A stretch of DNA of 64,000 bases from Candidatus Omnitrophota bacterium (GTDB taxonomy: Bacteria; Omnitrophota; Gorgyraeia; Ghiorseimicrobiales; Ghiorseimicrobiaceae): contig JAUXSB010000009.1 in NCBI GenBank assembly GCA_030681595.1, positions 24,265 through 88,264 on the forward strand. Reading direction: 5' to 3'. The notes under the pieces are model-generated. The model saw nothing but the letters and a program-made list of their open reading frames with translations, had not been told where the DNA came from and made no database searches. Every line of letters starts with the position of its first letter. Position 1 is the first letter of the stretch. This document shows, piece after piece, positions 1,125-44,903 of the stretch. The translations under genes and the position numbers were made by a program.

Positions 1125-1289
1125 GTGAGCGCACAATTTACGGAATGAAATGGACGTAAATTGTATGCACGAACTTACCCTCCACCCAGATACTTCGAAG
1201 CGTCTCTACGACGTAACTGGGTGGGGGGTTAATCCCGACAGATAATTTACATCAGGCTATTGCCTTCTGTAAATTATGTCGTCATTAAA

Positions 1290-6335: not shown

Positions 6336-6411
6336 TTTAAGTTATAGGTAAGAAGTTATGAGTTATGATTTATAACTTGTAACTCTTAAGCGACTGAAAG
6401 GAGCGAAGCAA

Positions 6412-7314: not shown

Positions 7315-7419
7315 TAATAGCGTTTAGCAAATAGCGCAGAGCGGATAGTTTTTTAAAGGTTTTCTATGCGCTAAACGCTACACGCTACATGCTATACGCT
7401 AAATTGATATGGAGGGTTA

Positions 7420-32132: not shown

Positions 32133-34940
32133 ATGAACGAAATTCCCTCCCGATATAACCCCAAAGAAGTTGAAGAGAAATGGTATAAGTTTTGGGAAGA
32201 AAATAAGCTATTTTCCGCAAAGCCCACTCCTAATAAGAAACCTTTCTGTATAGTCATACCTCCGCCTAATGTGACCGGAATTTTACACATGGGGCATGCC
32301 TTGAATAATTTCATACAGGATATTTTAACCCGTTACCAGCGAATGAAAGGTAGTGAGGCGCTCTGGATACCTGGGACAGACCATGCCGGGATTGCCACGC
32401 AGAACGTGGTGGAGAAGAAATTGGCTAAAGAAGGTAAAAAACGGCAGGACTTAGGGCGCGATGAATTTTTAAAGGAAGTCTGGAAATGGCGCGAGGAATA
32501 CGGTTCAACTATTATCAAGCAGCTTAAGAAATTAGGCGCATCCTGTGATTGGGAGCGTACTCGTTTTACTATGGATGAGGGCTACAGTGATGCAGTGCTG
32601 GAAGTATTTATTCATTTATATAATAAAGGCCTCATTTATCGGGGAAAGCGTATTATTAATTGGTGCCCGCGTTGTTCAACCGCGCTTAGCGATGAAGAAG
32701 CTCCTTATAAGGAATTGGAAGGGCAGCTTTATTATATACGGTATCCAATTAAAGTCACCAGTCATACCCTTGCGGGCACAGGCCAGTCATACCCTTGCGG
32801 GCACAGGCCAGTCACCAGAAAAAAACAGAAAACTATCAATTACGTAGTAGTGGCGACGACGCGGCCGGAGACGATGTTGGGCGATACGGCGGTAGCGGTT
32901 AATCCCAAAGACAAGCGCTATAAAGACCTGATAGGAAAGACTGTTATTCTTCCTTTGGTTGAGCGGGAAATTAAAATTATCGCTGATAATTTTGTTGATC
33001 CGAAATTCGGTACAGGCGCGGTTAAGGTTACCCCTGCCCATGATCCTAACGATTACCAGATGGGGCTGCGGCATAATCTAGAGTTTATTAATATTATGCA
33101 GGTCGATGGTGTGTTGAATTCTAATGCCGGCGAATACGATGGTATGGATAGGTTTGAGGCACGCCAGGCAATAGTTAACGATTTAAAAGAGCGTAAGCTG
33201 CTGGAGAAAATAGAACCGCATATGCATTCCGTAGGGCATTGCTATCGTTGTTCAACCGTAATTGAGCCATATTTGTCCAACCAGTGGTTTGTGAAAATGA
33301 AGCCTTTATCCAAACTCGCGTTGGAAGCGGTGAAAAAAGGCGAAATTAAATTTTATCCTAAGCGTTGGACAAAGGTTTATTTAAACTGGATGGAAAATAT
33401 TCAGGATTGGTGTATCTCGCGGCAGATTTGGTGGGGGCATAGGATGCCTGTTTATTATTGTAAAAATTGCTACAAGCCTCAAGCTTCAGGCTCCAAGCTT
33501 CAAACTGAAAAAGAAAAGCCTGCAGCAGATAAGGGTATCTTTGTTTCAAAGAATAAGCCGGAGAAATGCCCGGATTGCGGCTCAAGCGATATTTATCAAG
33601 ACGAAGATGTGTTGGATACTTGGTTTTCTTCCTGGCTCTGGCCGTTTGCGACGTTTGGCTGGCCGTTTACAAGCTACAAGCCTCAAGCTGCAAGCGACAA
33701 GCAAAAAAGCCTGCAGCAGGACGAACTTAATTACTTCTACCCTACTTCGGTATTAGTGACTGCTCAGGAAATAATCTTTTTCTGGGTGGCGCGCATGATT
33801 ATGGCGGGCTTTGAATTTATGGGTAAAAAGCCGTTTTCCGATGTTTATATCCATGGTACGGTGCGCGACGATACCGGTAAAAAGATGTCTAAGTCTCTGG
33901 GTAATATTATTGACCCGCTTGAAATTATAAATGAGTTTGGATCAGACGCGCTTCGTTTCAGTATTATTTCCCTGACCAGCGTAGGCCAGGATGTCTTTTT
34001 ATCTAGGAATAAATTTGAATACGGCAGGAATTTCGCCAATAAAGTCTGGAATGCCTCGCGCTATACCATAATGAACCTTAAGCCAGAAGAAATAAATGTG
34101 GATTTGTGCGCCTATTCTAAAGGTATATCCGGGCTTGCCGAGAAGTGGATTTTAAGCCGGTTTTACAGCGCTTTAGATAGAATAGAGAAGGCGCTTAAGC
34201 AGTATAAAATTAACGAGGCGGCTAAGGTAATGTATGAATTTTTCTGGCATAATTTCTGTGATTGGTACCTGGAATTTTCTAAGTTAACATTGGGGAGGCG
34301 CCAAACGCAGGTTGTGCTTTATAAGGTATTGGAAAAATCCCTGCGTGTTATGCATCCGTTCTTGCCGCATCTGACCGAAGAAATATGGCATAACCTGCCG
34401 GGTACAAAATCGTCCATAATGACGGAAAGCTGGCCGCATTTGCAGAAACAGTTTATCTCAAAAACAACGGATAAACAGATGCAGGTTTTGATAGATTTAA
34501 TTTCCCTGATAAGGAATATCCGTTCTGAATGGCACATATTGGAACACGCTGAAATAGAATGTATTATTAAGACTACAGATAAGGCTTCAAAAAAACTCAT
34601 ACAGGAAAACGATATTTATCTAAAAAAATTAGCAAAGCTAGGCCAGATAAAAATCGTAGAGAAAGCCGAAGATGTTTCCATGTGCGCATCCGGCGTGGCA
34701 GGAAAACTCGATTTTTATATACCACTTGAAAAACTTATTGATTTGACAAAAGAAAAAGAGCGCCTGTCTAAACAAATACAGTCATTTGAGGCGCAGTTTA
34801 AGGCTTTGAGAGAAAGATTAAAGAATAAGGAATTTCTTAAAAAAGCGCCCAACGAAGTGGTGGAAAAAGAAAAAATCAGGTTAGAAGAGTTATCGAAATT
34901 AATCAAGCGTATTGGCGATAATTTAAAAGTATTGGGTTAA
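32133..34940 (+). CDS. valS: valine--tRNA ligase, carrying in-frame repeat insertions
   Basis: 935 aa. HIGH (PPNVTGILHMGHA), KMSKS, editing domain, and a C-terminal coiled coil. Confidence 0.93.
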   Translation: MNEIPSRYNPKEVEEKWYKFWEENKLFSAKPTPNKKPFCIVIPPPNVTGILHMGHALNNFIQDILTRYQRMKGSEALWIPGTDHAGIATQNVVEKKLAKEGKKRQDLGRDEFLKEVWKWREEYGSTIIKQLKKLGASCDWERTRFTMDEGYSDAVLEVFIHLYNKGLIYRGKRIINWCPRCSTALSDEEAPYKELEGQLYYIRYPIKVTSHTLAGTGQSYPCGHRPVTRKKQKTINYVVVATTRPETMLGDTAVAVNPKDKRYKDLIGKTVILPLVEREIKIIADNFVDPKFGTGAVKVTPAHDPNDYQMGLRHNLEFINIMQVDGVLNSNAGEYDGMDRFEARQAIVNDLKERKLLEKIEPHMHSVGHCYRCSTVIEPYLSNQWFVKMKPLSKLALEAVKKGEIKFYPKRWTKVYLNWMENIQDWCISRQIWWGHRMPVYYCKNCYKPQASGSKLQTEKEKPAADKGIFVSKNKPEKCPDCGSSDIYQDEDVLDTWFSSWLWPFATFGWPFTSYKPQAASDKQKSLQQDELNYFYPTSVLVTAQEIIFFWVARMIMAGFEFMGKKPFSDVYIHGTVRDDTGKKMSKSLGNIIDPLEIINEFGSDALRFSIISLTSVGQDVFLSRNKFEYGRNFANKVWNASRYTIMNLKPEEINVDLCAYSKGISGLAEKWILSRFYSALDRIEKALKQYKINEAAKVMYEFFWHNFCDWYLEFSKLTLGRRQTQVVLYKVLEKSLRVMHPFLPHLTEEIWHNLPGTKSSIMTESWPHLQKQFISKTTDKQMQVLIDLISLIRNIRSEWHILEHAEIECIIKTTDKASKKLIQENDIYLKKLAKLGQIKIVEKAEDVSMCASGVAGKLDFYIPLEKLIDLTKEKERLSKQIQSFEAQFKALRERLKNKEFLKKAPNEVVEKEKIRLEELSKLIKRIGDNLKVLG
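32755..32818 (+). repeat. in-frame repeat insertion A: 25-bp unit tcatacccttgcgggcacaggccag in tandem x2, flanked by tcaccag direct repeats
   Basis: Read directly. The two copies are translated in different frames (SHTLAGTGQ, then SYPCGHRPV). Net insert 57 bp. The same unit recurs in nadC. Confidence 0.85.
33468..33533 (+). repeat. in-frame repeat insertion B copy 1 (heptamer-based: five NNCAAGC units plus aaaagcctgcagcag)
   Basis: ctacaagcctcaagct…aagcctgcagcag recurs 200 bp downstream. It sits between the two Cys pairs of the valS zinc knuckle. Confidence 0.7.
33668..33725 (+). repeat. in-frame repeat insertion B copy 2
   Basis: acaagc tacaagc ctcaagc tgcaagc gacaagc aaaaaagcctgcagcagg. 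The 3' block is read in a different frame from copy 1. Confidence 0.7.
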
Positions 34941-34943
34941 ATT

Positions 34944-35843
34944 ATGCAGAAAAAAGAAATTATCAATATCGTAAAAAATGCCCTTAGGGAAGATGCCGCG
35001 GATAGAGATATTACTACGCAGGCGCTTATTCCTCTGGATTTAAGGGCAGCGGCAAGGATTATTACCAAAGAAAATGGGGTAGTTTGCGGATTAAGCATTG
35101 CGGAACTCGCCTTTAAGCTGTTGGATAAAAATATCAAGTTTAAGGCAAAAGTCAAAGATGGTGCGGTAATAAAAAATGGTAGTTGTTTGGCAGAGATTTA
35201 CGGTAGGGCACGGCCAATTTTATCTGCAGAACGTACCGCACTCAATTTCTTAGGGAATCTTTGTGGAATAGCCGCGTTTACCCGTCAATTCGTAGAAAAA
35301 GTTAAACCGTATAAAACTAAGATTCTGGATACCAGAAAAACTACGCCGAATTTAAGAATACTGGAAAAATACGCGGTGCGTTGCGGCGGCGGGTTCAACT
35401 ACCGTTTTGATTTAAGCGAACAAATATTGGTTAAAGATAACCACATAAGAATCACAAATGACAAATTACAAATGGCAAATTTAAAATATGTCGTTGAGGC
35501 CGTACGAAAAAACGTGAAGGGTAAAAAAATTGAGATTGAGGTAGATAATTTAAGGCAGTTCAAAGAAGTAATTGCTGTGGCGCCCGATATTATCATGCTG
35601 GATAATTTTAATCTGTCTGATATCAAAAAAGCGGTAAAGATTAAAAATCGGTCACCAGTCATACCCTTGCGGGCACAGGCCAGCCACCGGTCGCCGGTAA
35701 AACTAGAAGCATCTGGTGGAATAACTTTAAGAAATATTAAGAAAGTTGCTGCAACCGGCGTAGATTTTATCTCTATCGGCGCGCTCACCCATTCAGTTAA
35801 ATCCTTGGATTTATCTTTAGAAATCACTAAAAAATCTGCGTAA
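34944..35843 (+). CDS. nadC: nicotinate-nucleotide pyrophosphorylase (carboxylating), carrying an in-frame repeat insertion
   Basis: 299 aa QPRTase. The usual C-terminal …LEASGGI motif is interrupted by the insert. Confidence 0.88.
   Translation: MQKKEIINIVKNALREDAADRDITTQALIPLDLRAAARIITKENGVVCGLSIAELAFKLLDKNIKFKAKVKDGAVIKNGSCLAEIYGRARPILSAERTALNFLGNLCGIAAFTRQFVEKVKPYKTKILDTRKTTPNLRILEKYAVRCGGGFNYRFDLSEQILVKDNHIRITNDKLQMANLKYVVEAVRKNVKGKKIEIEVDNLRQFKEVIAVAPDIIMLDNFNLSDIKKAVKIKNRSPVIPLRAQASHRSPVKLEASGGITLRNIKKVAATGVDFISIGALTHSVKSLDLSLEITKKSA
35651..35690 (+). repeat. in-frame insertion of repeat A (single 25-bp unit, flanks tcaccag / ccaccgg) in nadC
   Basis: Identical 25-mer to the valS copies, translated in the third possible frame (VIPLRAQAS). 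Net ~39 bp. Confidence 0.85.
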
Positions 35844-37838: not shown

Positions 37839-37950
37839 AAGATCTTATTCGTCGCACTGGAATTTTCTGCCGTCTGCTACGGTTTACGACTCGTTCATTT
37901 TACGGAATTCCCTGCGGTCAGTTCCGTAATTCACTCGTCGTAACTCTTTG

Positions 37951-38316
37951 CAGACCCGCCAGAACGAAGTCGGGCTGGCATTTGCCAGTGAATTCCTAGT
38001 GTGCTTACGAATAAATCTTCCACTCGCCTTTTGTTTTGGTTGAAGAGGAATTATAATGAACCCGTTGCCCACCTCGGAGGTGGGCAACGGGTTAGATAAG
38101 CGAAATTCAGCTTATACGAAGTGCGGATTTTGTGATATTATATAGGCAAAGTTGAGATATTACGTAAGCAGAAGCTACAACTAAACGAAGAAAATAGTGT
38201 CGTTTCTGCGTAACACGTTTATTTAAAATAAGTTACACGATAAATCGATATTTCGCTAACACGTCGCTGAAAACCGGTTCCACCGCGGGCCAGCCCGACA
38301 AGCATTCTGGCGGGGG
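37951..38316. repeat. composite GC-rich element bounded by imperfect ~28-bp inverted repeats, with nested hairpins
   Basis: 37951-37979 (cagacccgccagaacgaagtcgggctggc) is the near reverse complement of 38289-38316. The interior has a perfect 17-bp-arm palindrome at 38059-38093. The terminal motif is shared with 11021-11100. Confidence 0.5.
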
Positions 38317-38385
38317 TGGAATAGGTTTGGTTCGTAATTAAACCGTTATCAACCTACGCGGTTGATATGGTTGGTAGGGTATAAT

Positions 38386-38589
38386 ATGGATACGTCATTA
38401 TTATTTGCAGGTGTAATTTTTGGTTCAATTGGTACGGCGTATTTTGTCTATGGCAAAAAACAGCAAAACTGGATTGCCTTTGTTTGTGGTATAATATTAT
38501 GCGTAACCCCTTATTTTATAGCAAACATATATTTACTAGTGGCAACAGGTATTGTATTGGGAGTTTTGCCGTTTTTAATAAAATTATAA
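38386..38589 (+). CDS. hypothetical small membrane protein (two predicted TM helices)
   Basis: 67-75 aa and hydrophobic. No recognisable family. The start could be 38362 or 38386. Confidence 0.4.
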   Translation: MDTSLLFAGVIFGSIGTAYFVYGKKQQNWIAFVCGIILCVTPYFIANIYLLVATGIVLGVLPFLIKL

Positions 38590-38665
38590 CCGTTCTATGT
38601 CTGCGAGGTGTACGGCTAAAAGGGGGCTCAGAGTAATTTTCTAACCGAGATGAAAAAAGGCTGCC

Positions 38666-38908
38666 ATGATTGATGAGATTAAAAAATATATAGCGCAAGT
38701 CAAGGGTTCGGTCAATTGCCGCAAGGATTTTAAGTGCCTGAAATCAGATTTTAAGGATACCTGTAAAGCAAGGTATAGCGGTGAAGGTAATCAACTGGAA
38801 TGTCTTGAAGAAGAGCCTCTGGATTGTAAATTTTCCGTTTTACGCAGCGATTTATTTTTTTGCCAATGCCCAATTAGGGCATATATCGCAGAAAAATTAA
38901 AAGAATAA
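38666..38908 (+). CDS. hypothetical Cys-rich small protein (8 Cys in 80 aa)
   Basis: C-x6-C…C…C…C…C-x-C pattern. No family recognised. Confidence 0.4.
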   Translation: MIDEIKKYIAQVKGSVNCRKDFKCLKSDFKDTCKARYSGEGNQLECLEEEPLDCKFSVLRSDLFFCQCPIRAYIAEKLKE

Positions 38909-38913
38909 AGTAT

Positions 38914-39679: not shown

Positions 39680-39708
39680 TTGACAGCTTTTTTGGTTTAT
39701 GCTATTTT
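39680..39708 (+). promoter_or_regulatory. groESL promoter (TTGACA-17-TGcTATTTT, extended -10)
   Basis: Consensus -35. The -10 overlaps the CIRCE left arm, as in HrcA-controlled promoters. Confidence 0.5.
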
Positions 39709-39733
39709 AGCACTTCCCTAGCAAGAGTGCTAA
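39707..39733 (+). promoter_or_regulatory. CIRCE operator (HrcA binding site): TTAGCACTT-N9-GAGTGCTAA
   Basis: Matches the CIRCE consensus TTAGCACTC-N9-GAGTGCTAA at 17 of 18 positions. Upstream of groES. Confidence 0.85.
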
Positions 39734-39872
39734 AATGATGTTTGGCGCTTTGATTTGCTCCTTGCTTAAGCGCTCGTTCCGAAATTTCGGAACCACGCAA
39801 GCTTCGGAGTTAACTCACATTTATAATCCCGAAGCTTCGGGATTATAGTTTCATTAAAAGGAGGTGTAGGAA

Positions 39873-40163
39873 ATGGAAATTAAACCATTAGGAGACAGGG
39901 TGGTAATTAAACCCTTAGAAGCAGAGTCAAAAACCAAAGGCGGGATTGTACTTCCGGATACCGCTAAGGAAAAGCCGCAAGAAGGTAAAGTTATTGCTGT
40001 GGGCAAAGGTAAGGTTTTGGACAGCGGCATAGTCCAGGCATTAGAGGTTAAAAAAGGTGATAAAGTACTTTACGGAAAATATAGCGGTAATGAAGTGACC
40101 ACCAAGGAAGGCGACGAACTGATTATCATGCGTGAGGATGATATACTCGCAATTATAGGTTAA
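39873..40163 (+). CDS. groES: co-chaperonin GroES
   Basis: 96 aa Cpn10. Confidence 0.93.
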
Positions 40164-40175
40164 CATTAAAAAATA

Positions 40176-40251
40176 AGTTGGTTAGTTGGTTAGTTGGTTA
40201 GTTGGTTAGGTTTAACGAACCAACAAACTATCAAACTAACAAACTAAAACC
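40176..40251. repeat. (agttggtt)x4-5 tandem octamer followed by its inverted complement, between groES and groEL
   Basis: Read directly. Forms a long AT-rich hairpin. No spacers, so not CRISPR. Confidence 0.8.
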
Positions 40252-40266
40252 GACGAGCGTAAGTGA

Positions 40267-43275: not shown

Positions 43276-44817
43276 GTGCCTAAAAACACTATACTAATTT
43301 TGGATTTTGGTTCGCAATACACACAGTTGATTGCGCGCCGTGTGCGCGAGAATAACGTTTTTAGTTTAATCGTGCCTTATAATATTAAGGCCGCTGAAAT
43401 TAAGAAGCTCAGCCCCCGGGGCTTAATTCTTTCCGGGGGCCCTGCAAGCGTATATGCCAAGGTTTCTCCCCAGCCGGATAAAAATATATATAAATTAGGT
43501 ATTCCCATTTTAGGTATTTGTTATGGTTTGCAGGTGAGCGCGCAGATTTTAGGCGGCAGGGTTAAATTTAGCAAACAGCGTGAATACGGCCGGGTTGAGT
43601 TTTTTGCGGATGACCATAAAGACCTTTTTAATGGCGTATCCGGTAACTTTACCTGCTGGATGAGTCATGGAGATTATTTAACCGGGCTTCCCAAAGGTTT
43701 TAGCTGTATTGGGCACACTTTAAATACTCCGCTAGCTGCAATTGCCGATAGGAAGCGGCGTATATTCGGGCTGCAGTTCCATCCGGAAGTAGCACATACA
43801 CAAAAGGGCGATAAGATTTTAGCTAACTTTTTGTTTAAGGTATGCGGCTGTTCTTCGGATTGGGTGATGGAATCATTTATAAAAGAAGCGATAGATAAAA
43901 TCAGAAAGGCTGTCGGAAAAAAGAAGGTTATTTGTGGCCTATCCGGAGGGGTGGATTCTTCGGTTGTTGCTTTACTTATCCATAAGGCTATCGGTAACCA
44001 ACTGCGATGTATTTTTATTGATAACGGCCTATTGCGTAAAGACGAGCCGGAGCAGGTAAGAAAAACTTTTAAGGAGCATTTTAAGATAAATTTGGATTAT
44101 GTTGTGGCAGGCGCGCGGTTTTTAAAGAAACTCAAGGGCGTAACTGACCCGGAAGAAAAAAGAAAAATTATCGGCAATGAATTCGTTAAGGTTTTTGAAG
44201 AAGAGGCGGTTAAATTTAAAGGCGCGGAGTTTTTAGCGCAGGGTACGCTTTATCCGGATGTGATTGAGTCTGTCCCGGCGTTCGGGGGGCCAACCGCAAA
44301 AATTAAGACACATCACAATGTCGGCGGGCTTCCTTTAAATATGAAACTTAAACTCATTGAGCCGTTGCGCGAATTATTCAAGGATGAAGTGCGTTTAATT
44401 GGTAAACAACTAGGCCTGCCCGTCAACATTATAAGCCGTCAGCCTTTTCCGGGTCCGGGGCTTGCGATACGCATTATCGGCGAAGTTACCGAAGAACGCC
44501 TCGCGATTGTAAGGGAAGCTGATGAGCGGCTCCTTGAAGAGATAAAAAAATCAGCGATTTATCCGGATATCTGGCAGTCGTTCGCCGTGCTTTTACCGGT
44601 AAAAAGCGTAGGCGTGATGGGCGATGAAAGGACTTATGAGAATGTTGTCGCTGTAAGATGCGTTTCCAGTGTTGACGGCATGACTGCCGACTGGGTAAAA
44701 GTGCCTTATGAAATATTAGAGAAGATTTCCAACAAGATTATTAACGAAGTCAAAGGTATTAATCGCGTTACTTACGATATAAGCTCTAAACCTCCGGCAA
44801 CTATTGAGTGGGAATAA
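43276..44817 (+). CDS. guaA: GMP synthase (glutamine-hydrolysing)
   Basis: 513 aa. GATase-1 (catalytic Cys in GICYG) plus ATP-PPase SGGVDSSV. Confidence 0.93.
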
Positions 44818-44822
44818 TGATG

Positions 44823-44903
44823 AAGTTATAAGTGGTGAGTTATGAGTTATAAATTTAAAAAAGTAACTTAAACTTGTAACTTATAATTTATAACTCATAA
44901 CTT
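44823..44903. repeat. ~80-bp AT-rich near-perfect palindrome (gagttatgagttataaatt … aatttataactcataactt)
   Basis: 19-bp arms with nested inner arms. The same agttatgagttat / ataacttgtaact motif occurs at 6353-6387. Confidence 0.8.

Follow-up and report, generated by a model that had tools for sequence, protein, structure and literature searches.

A structured S8–L6 spacer in an Omnitrophota spc operon is a copy of an apparently new family of palindromic repeat modules

We found that the spacer between the S8 (rpsH) and L6 (rplF) genes in the spc ribosomal-protein operon of an Omnitrophota bacterium is a copy of an apparently new family of ~60-base palindromic repeat modules in Omnitrophota intergenic DNA. 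In the reading that we favor, with a probability of roughly 0.6, the spacer is a composite copy of this dispersed family, which would be maintained and propagated at the DNA level in the manner of REP/BIME/REPIN elements or MITEs. Interspersed palindromic repeats such as REP, BIME, REPIN, Correia, and BOX are known mainly from a few cultivated phyla, and both their function and their spread are still debated; the Omnitrophota are an uncultivated phylum with very small cells. Searches of the literature on Omnitrophota/Omnitrophica repeats, and on the module sequence, found no description.

Results

The S8–L6 Spacer and Its Fold

The window, i.e., the whole stretch of 64,000 nucleotides that was analyzed, opens inside rplE and continues through rpsN (464–646), rpsH, rplF, rplR, rpsE, rplO, and secY into adk, map, infA, rpmJ, rpsM, rpsK, rpsD, rpoA, and rplQ. 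The rpsH coding sequence (729–1124, + strand; from the open reading frame list, with a match to PF00410) encodes an S8 protein that is 100% identical to that of an NCBI "Candidatus Omnitrophota bacterium" MAG entry. The rplF coding sequence (1290–1832, + strand) starts at the ATG at 1290, where the N-terminus MSRIGKKPI that is kept in the relatives begins, and the TTG at 1260 only opens an upstream extension of the mechanically called L6 reading frame. The spacer is therefore 165 nt long (1125–1289) and not 135 bp (1125–1259), as the initial annotation had it, and because L6 starts at 1290 rather than 1260, that annotation missed a third hairpin (1229–1288). It was right in regarding the gap as unusually long: 165 nt compared with a median of 22 nt among the 85 spc loci listed, the baseline being a set of at least 85 loci, mostly Firmicutes, obtained from a profile search of genome contigs with an S8 alignment. 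No Shine–Dalgarno (SD) sequence lies upstream of the rplF ATG. As a special feature of this gene, however, the lack of an SD is weakened and not exceptional, because only 24 of the 54 genes in the 64-kb window have a strong one.

As RNA, the + strand of the spacer folds with a minimum free energy of −69.7 kcal/mol compared with −39.4 ± 4.2 kcal/mol for shuffled sequences (z = −7.28), and none of the 200 shuffles was as stable, which bears out the strong secondary structure first proposed for it. As DNA, the − strand folds at −43.2 kcal/mol (z = −9.74). The two stems noted at the outset are both real, namely the perfect 10-bp stem acaatttacg/cgtaaattgt (1133–1142/1155–1164) and the G/C-rich stem ccctccacccag/ctgggtgggggg (1178–1189/1217–1228; 12 pairs, including one G–U), but the spacer folds into three hairpins rather than two. 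The third of these, H3, is the best conserved and ends 1 nt before the rplF ATG.

H3 corresponds to a right module, A (1225–1288, + strand), with the layout GGGG-TTAAT-CC-CGAC-AG-ATAATTTACA...TGTAAATTAT-GTCG-TC-ATTAA. It is matched by two covariance models (R1, 67.1 bits; R2, 64.2 bits) and is conserved in the related loci L002 and L004. The first hairpin, H1, corresponds to a left module, B (1122–1181, − strand; R1, 62.3 bits, E = 7e-12; R2, 72.3 bits), which is an inverted, diverged copy of the same ~60-nt hairpin module. B has an outer stem TAAGT/ACTTA, the first three bases of which are the rpsH stop codon (TAA, 1122–1124), followed by a 2 × 2 internal loop (TC/TC on the − strand), a 4-bp stem, a 2-nt bulge, and the perfect 10-bp stem at 1133–1142/1155–1164. 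On the + strand, the internal loops of H1 read "GA", complementary to TC/TC in the module, and TAAGT/ACTTA in B versus TTAAT/ATTAA in A is a double compensatory change. Model R1, which was built from 27 H3-type modules only, matches H1 on the opposite strand, so the spacer consists of two inverted ~60-nt modules flanking a G+C-rich hairpin; the H1 of L002 also matches on the minus strand (60 bits). The fold also contains a central, G+C-clamped hairpin, H2 (1178–1228). The CCC/GGG flanks of the head-to-head modules make up its base, and the interior is hypervariable from one locus to the next.

Once transcribed into the spc mRNA, the element is predicted to form three stable hairpins that begin at the S8 stop codon and reach precisely to the L6 start codon. 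There, it would probably be at most a passive intercistronic stabilizer or processing site; the processing or attenuation role suggested earlier is a possibility.

A Dispersed Family of Modules

A pattern scan of metagenomes with the conserved skeleton of the third hairpin matched at least 120 loci, and among the matches listed, about a third are genuine, the rest being A+T-rich chance matches. The family comprises at least 49 modules in 31 sources and 15 in 11 further loci (at least 64 modules in about 42 loci). The copies are dispersed in unrelated intergenic sites, and the spacer belongs to the family. A leader specific to rplF is rejected, since no genuine metagenome copy precedes rplF among the matches listed.

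The unit is 57–75 nt long and has three helical segments. Read from the outside inward, a GGG flank is followed by the 5-bp outer stem TTAAT/ATTAA, a 2 × 2 internal loop with conserved TC/TC, a stem of 4 bp that covaries, a bulge of 2 nt on the 5' side, the 10-bp stem ATAATTTACG/CGTAAATTAT, and a variable tip that ends in "TC". The 49 aligned copies begin with GGGA-TTAAT and finish with TC-ATTAA.

Head-to-head pairs were found in at least 13 loci (the window, L002, L046, L096, L108, L114, L119, L131, L137, L145, L159, L190, and L194). The density of modules is low in the window, at three in 64 kb, which speaks against a mobile repeat, and reaches four in 0.8 kb in L137. Direct tandems also occur: the murA–rpsP gap of Candidatus Kappaea frigidicola (L105, 2578–2881; L211, 1885–2250) holds three module copies before rpsP as three tandem module-plus-spacer units with a 121-nt period. 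The second contig of this locus breaks at the repeat, which suggests that the repeat fragments assemblies.

The central hairpins belong in part to recurrent types that are common to unrelated loci. The type ccttgacatc...gatgtcaagg is found in L002, L091, L096, and L159, with a close variant, ccttgacacg...cgtgtcaagg, in L114. A second type, cccttgcttaa(a/g)c...gcttaagcttcggga, precedes modules in L153 and L112/L156 and has a variant at the groES site of the window, and a third, ccccaccacttttag..., occurs in L145 and L174. In L149, only a stub, "GAAACTTATCC", is kept of a lost B (left) module.

Most of the module loci are Omnitrophota, including, by protein names, the window, L004, L046, L104, L113, L145, and L105/L211 (Ca. 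Kappaea frigidicola), and two others appear to belong to the Bacteroidota. L093 encodes proteins of Bacteroidales MAGs and L086 encodes a SusC/SusD pair; with these contigs being apparently Bacteroidota, the family is therefore not confined to Omnitrophota. Both (L086, 10841–10903; L093, 1830–1893) carry a module variant, TTAATTCGACTnnATAATTTCAATT..., after a G+C hairpin. No match was obtained in 76 non-Omnitrophota spc loci or in viral contigs, the latter result leading us to reject an association with phages. The only matches in the spc control set were an inverted pair between rplR and rpsE in another Omnitrophota MAG, and there, too, the element extends from the upstream stop codon as far as the SD of the following gene.

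The Same Junction in Related Genomes

Occupancy of the S8–L6 junction is patchy among the relatives. L001, whose S8 is 86% identical, has an unstructured gap of 52 nt with AAGGAG and a GTG start; it keeps TAATTACACAGAT...AATTATAG (by eye), apparently the collapsed remains of the third hairpin. L002 (S8 74% identical) has a 144-nt spacer with a three-hairpin layout like that of the window, L004 (69%, Omnitrophica CG11) has 91 nt with the second and third hairpins only, and L207 (65%) has a degenerate third hairpin followed by GGAG and GTG. There is no element in the gaps of L206 (72%; 43 nt), L208 (61%; 9 nt), and L209 (60%; 61 nt), and no module was found in four more distant Omnitrophota with gaps of 6, 66, 8, and 6 nt. 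The proposal that a repeat element was inserted into the polycistronic spc transcript thus holds up, given that the element belongs to a dispersed family and that several relatives have this junction either without it or with a decayed form.

Identity between the window and L002 is 83% for the third hairpin, 66% for the first, which shows compensatory changes, and 37% for the middle hairpin, compared with 53–57% at the third codon positions of the flanking genes. Similarly, the third hairpin is 75% identical between the window and L004, compared with 38% at third codon positions. H2 is only 35–37% identical to the H2 of the orthologous spacers of L002 and L004, and it was swapped between orthologous copies while module A stayed 75–83% identical. 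The higher conservation of module A (75–83%) than of third codon positions (38–57%) implies constraint or concerted evolution.

Other r-protein junctions in the relatives (L16–L29, S5–L15, and S14–S8) carry structured inserts of 140–170 nt of unrelated sequence (L207, 691–860 and 4941–5100; L002, 2358–2530; L004, 1823–2010), some of which contain internal repeats (aagc[ct]acaagccggagg...). In this clade, operon spacers seem to be generally prone to colonization.

Position of the Modules and the Genes Downstream

The third module of the window, a diverged copy, lies in the 5' leader of groES (39806–39857, + strand; R1, 30.1 bits, E = 2e-4; R2, 40.7 bits, E = 7e-7), preceded by an H2-like hairpin, ctccttgcttaagc...gcaagcttcggag, that was recognized from the sequence (39758–39809, + strand). 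This leader (39680–39875) contains, in order, a TTGACA-type promoter, a CIRCE operator (ttagcact-N9-agtgctaa, 39707–39733), the H2-like hairpin, the module, the SD AAGGAGG, and the ATG at 39873. A heat-shock leader thus carries the same repeat as the spc operon.

The genes downstream of modules are rplF, rpsE, rpmA, rplS, rpsP, groES, tig, acpP (twice), hisH, hisB, metG, folE, yebC, asd, and rtcB. Furthermore, a module lies 3–5 nt before the 5S rRNA gene in L152 (5 nt) and L199, 5 nt before a tRNA gene in L134, and within the tRNA–23S spacer in L165. These neighbors are heavily enriched for highly expressed genes (r-proteins, chaperones, ACP, and stable RNAs). In ~29 of the 32 assessable cases, the gene-proximal module is in the sense orientation, and it stops 0–17 nt short of the start codon or right at the SD; one module, in L102, points towards the 3' end of a gene. 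A purely selfish element predicts neither the sense orientation nor the start-adjacent position nor the highly expressed neighbors. They may reflect a function, with the module being, for instance, a signal for processing or stabilization or an element of DNA topology. As an alternative to function, a strand- and transcription-biased insertion mechanism could account for the bias in orientation and position. Since almost all of the genes in the window lie on one strand, the effects of transcription and replication are inseparable here.

Two observations were made at the rRNA loci. The 23S rRNA gene of L152, where the module occupies the 23S–5S spacer, is split by a group I intron (694–2648, − strand; Rfam, 61 bits) with a LAGLIDADG-like ORF (by eye). 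Mimicry of the rrn boxA by the module 3' end, GTGCTCATTAA, was set aside because the L165 spacer carries a canonical TGTTCTTTGACAA further downstream.

Covariation of the Stems and the Unpaired Bases

The structure of the module covaries. In the 49-member alignment, 97.4% of the cells are paired and 17 of the 19 pairs change on both sides, counts that lean towards the model's structure because the alignment was fitted to it; 22 of the 49 copies are unconstrained by the search pattern. None of 500 shuffles reached the observed pairing score, and slid controls were 29–43% paired.

Does this covariation reflect RNA or DNA? RNA under selection normally tolerates G–U far more than A–C. Among 930 scored pairs, we counted 895 Watson–Crick, 10 G–U, and 11 A–C pairs; with G–U no commoner than A–C, the symmetry looks like that of DNA. 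The unpaired TC/TC bases are kept in the module's own orientation in 12 of 13 inverted (B-type) copies, as they are in 34–35 of 36 gene-proximal (A-type) copies, and the tip ends in TC in 10 of the 13 inverted partners. The mRNA carries the inverted partner as its complement, so a factor that reads the sense RNA would not keep the unpaired bases of this partner conserved. From the symmetry of G–U and A–C and the own-orientation unpaired bases, we infer that the hairpins may be extruded and recognized on either DNA strand.

Other Repeats in the Window

The spacer was initially thought to share tttacggaat- and cgtcgtaact-like blocks with an element downstream of uvrB, a resemblance that we attribute to chance. 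The frequencies are near expectation, with nine matches to TTTACGGAAT at up to one mismatch versus 8.2 expected and three to CGACGTAACT versus 1.5 expected, and the spacing between the two 10-mer blocks differs (72 nt in the spacer and 37 nt in the uvrB-downstream region). A blastn search of the spacer against the window found no copy elsewhere, the uvrB-downstream region included, and neither covariance model matched that region even at E = 5–10 with the filters off. The region itself is a gene-poor stretch of 1.07 kb (37839–38913) with two small ORFs, a perfect 17-bp hairpin (38059–38093), and a long-range inverted repeat (37948–37964/38305–38321); no Rfam family matches it, and it bears no relation to the spacer element.

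Two further repeat types were noted. A repeat of ~36 nt, GTCACCAGTCATACCCTTGCGGGCACAGGCCAGTCA, occurs in valS (32754–32814), where it is partly duplicated, and in a nadC-like QRPTase gene (35651–35686); the copies are 89–97% identical, lie in different reading frames, and leave both ORFs open. The repeat is reminiscent of the Rickettsia RPEs and similar in-frame palindromic insertions and is absent from all 212 loci collected. Another type of hairpin, made of 7-nt periodic units with complementary halves (e.g., gttggtta ×4 ... aacaaact), is found in the rpmJ–rpsM (6339–6400), rpsK–rpsD (7360–7400), groES–groEL (40170–40255), and guaA–dnaE (44809–44902) spacers of the window.

Discussion

How might such a composite element arise and persist? 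In the explanation that we favor, two head-to-head modules (B, inverted, 1122–1181; A, 1225–1288) clamp a variable central hairpin with their GGG/CCC flanks, and the hairpins would be extruded from either strand and recognized by a trans-acting protein. The modules would be maintained and propagated at the DNA level, by analogy with REP/BIME/REPIN elements or with MITEs that have hairpin ends, and single modules would arise from pairs through decay of the partner. Several searches for the expected machinery or traces were negative. No transposase was found in the 64-kb window (Pfam, all large ORFs), whose 50-odd ORFs are all housekeeping; phmmer with IS200 and RAYT queries, a weak test, gave no match in any locus; and neither a target-site duplication nor a clean pair of empty and filled sites was seen among the loci compared.

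Could the module instead be a cis-acting RNA before highly expressed genes? It would then signal processing by an endonuclease (RNase III-type) or act as a 5' stabilizer hairpin that fixes where the downstream mRNA, tRNA, or rRNA begins; in the spc operon, it would uncouple L6 and the distal genes from S8. Spread at the DNA level would be secondary, or the module would be an exapted mobile element. The prevailing sense orientation (~29/32), the short distances to the start codon (0–17 nt, or at the SD) and to 5S (3–5 nt), the enrichment of r-proteins, chaperones, ACP, and stable RNAs downstream, and the conservation of module A beyond that of synonymous sites all point this way, as does a helix of ~19 bp plus loops, which is the size of an RNase III substrate. 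On the other hand, G–U pairs are no commoner than A–C mismatches, the inverted partners keep TC/TC and the tip "TC" in their own orientation, no Rfam family matches, occupancy at orthologous junctions is patchy, and the L102 module points towards the 3' end of its gene. We consider a cis-acting RNA a tentative alternative, possible but on the unlikely side.

A more far-reaching proposal, which we regard as rather unlikely, is that the module is more than selfish DNA, namely the recognition hairpin of a new system that places it, or keeps it, immediately before the most highly expressed genes, tRNAs, and rRNAs of the Omnitrophota and some Bacteroidota. It could take two possible forms. In one, the module would be a folded-DNA site that is read on either strand by a recombinase, a nuclease, or a topology factor. 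In the other, it would be an RNA processing signal that sets downstream 5' ends, possibly including those of SD-less or near-leaderless mRNAs such as rplF, hisH, and metG.

It is quite improbable that the spacer is a portable transcription cassette, in which the G+C hairpin plus TTAATT would be a terminator and a promoter in the module (−35-like TTTACG and −10-like TAAATT) would start transcription just before the gene. A consensus scan does find TTTACA-18-TAAATT inside H3 on both strands, and the module 3' end is close to gene and RNA starts. However, the spacing of the hexamers is set by the variable loop and ranges over 13–30 nt, with 16–18 nt in only 12 of the 31 measurable copies, which makes a promoter inside the module unlikely; promoter function would also leave the stem covariation unexplained, the groES copy has a canonical promoter plus CIRCE upstream of it, and no terminator-like site (intrinsic terminators with a G+C hairpin and a T run) was called in 600–1900.

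Finally, the initial annotation raised a binding site for an autoregulatory r-protein. In this reading, a site for S8 (or L6) that mimics an rRNA helix would control the translation of the distal spc genes; only its strong structure and its place in the spc operon, right at the start codon of L6, speak for it, and it is effectively refuted by the dispersal of the family, since a spacer that is one copy among many is not a dedicated S8 control site. The same module precedes groES, tig, acpP, hisH, metG, and other genes unlinked to S8 or L6, as well as rRNA and tRNA genes, and it occurs at another spc junction (L18–S5) in another Omnitrophota genome, is absent from the S8–L6 junction in many relatives, and has no match to an Rfam r-protein leader even at E = 10. 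The 64-kb window contains no 16S rRNA gene, the source of the S8-binding helix 21.

Returning to a dispersed repeat kept at the DNA level, the unit of this family is unusually elaborate and its architecture is strictly conserved. Together with the strand-wise conservation of the unpaired bases and the strong bias towards sites in front of stable RNAs and highly expressed genes, this elaborate unit makes the family a good test case for distinguishing parasites from exapted expression or topology elements. The family also explains many over-long, structured operon spacers in Omnitrophota, which could otherwise be mistaken for riboswitches or r-protein leaders, and it apparently causes contig breaks in metagenome assemblies.

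Comparison with Known Element Families

A search of the full window against Rfam at gathering scores gave no match to the element, and when the E limit was raised to 10 for 600–1400, only a chance miRNA match appeared; on 20 related loci, there was no match to the module. The element is like the E. coli spc S8 operator and the r-protein leaders of Rfam in lying in an r-protein operon, beside a start codon, with a strong hairpin. Unlike these, the module also occurs outside r-protein operons, it is not a conserved part of the junction, and no Rfam family matches it.

Among mobile elements, the two modules act like the inverted ends of a MITE, 60 nt each, but no autonomous relative was found, and flanking TAA...TAA sequences are indistinguishable from the covarying outer stems. 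A PATE derived from IS200/IS605 needs two subterminal hairpins on the same strand and a Y1 transposase, whereas the paired modules here lie on opposite strands, and phmmer found no Y1 transposase in the loci.

The anatomy of the folded strand has a parallel in the attC sites of integrons. In a folded attC strand, an unpaired central spacer separates the outer stem from an inner stem that bears extrahelical bases and is capped by a variable tip, and recognition of the strand depends on the structure and the unpaired bases, not on the stem sequence. However, the module lacks the RYYYAAC/GTTRRRY core, its outer stems being TTAAT/ATTAA or TAAGT/ACTTA; there is no integrase or cassette array, and the flanking genes are core housekeeping genes.

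The Correia (NEMIS) elements of Neisseria and the BOX elements of Streptococcus pneumoniae are non-coding, 100–170 nt long, and modular or built from inverted repeats; they lie close to genes and are co-transcribed, and their hairpins may be RNase III targets or alter mRNA stability. The element described here is similar in size, modular and inverted-repeat build, gene-proximal insertion, co-transcription, and hairpins. Correia elements differ in having plain terminal inverted repeats and a TA duplication, and BOX modules differ in that they are not self-complementary hairpin units. Neither has any sequence relation to the module, and the host phyla differ.

The closest parallels are with REP elements and their composites. 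REPs are extragenic imperfect palindromes of 20–40 nt that are co-transcribed with operons (PMC3733652; PMC3116915). REP/REPIN units are mostly inverted pairs with a less conserved spacer, singlets being derived from doublets by decay; clusters and tandem arrays occur, and the stems change by compensation (PMC3116915; PMC3733652). REPINs form either one long hairpin or a "clover" of separate hairpins, and the clover matches the three-hairpin fold of the spacer (PMC3116915). Inverted doublets with a less conserved spacer are likewise found here in at least 13 loci. BIMEs are built from two REP subtypes together with distinct linker motifs, and these subtypes and linkers resemble the A and B modules and the H2 types of the present family. 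There are also differences. The module is larger, ~60 nt (57–75 nt) with a fixed internal loop and bulge versus 20–40 nt; the 49 aligned modules have no terminal unpaired GTAG or CGTC tag; and no RAYT was found in the window (Pfam) or in the loci (phmmer). Furthermore, the modules are found next to the start of the gene that follows, whereas most REPs are situated 3' of coding regions, and there is no sequence similarity to REPs. Overall, it is the BIME/REPIN elements that the family most resembles in its organization and probably also in its maintenance.
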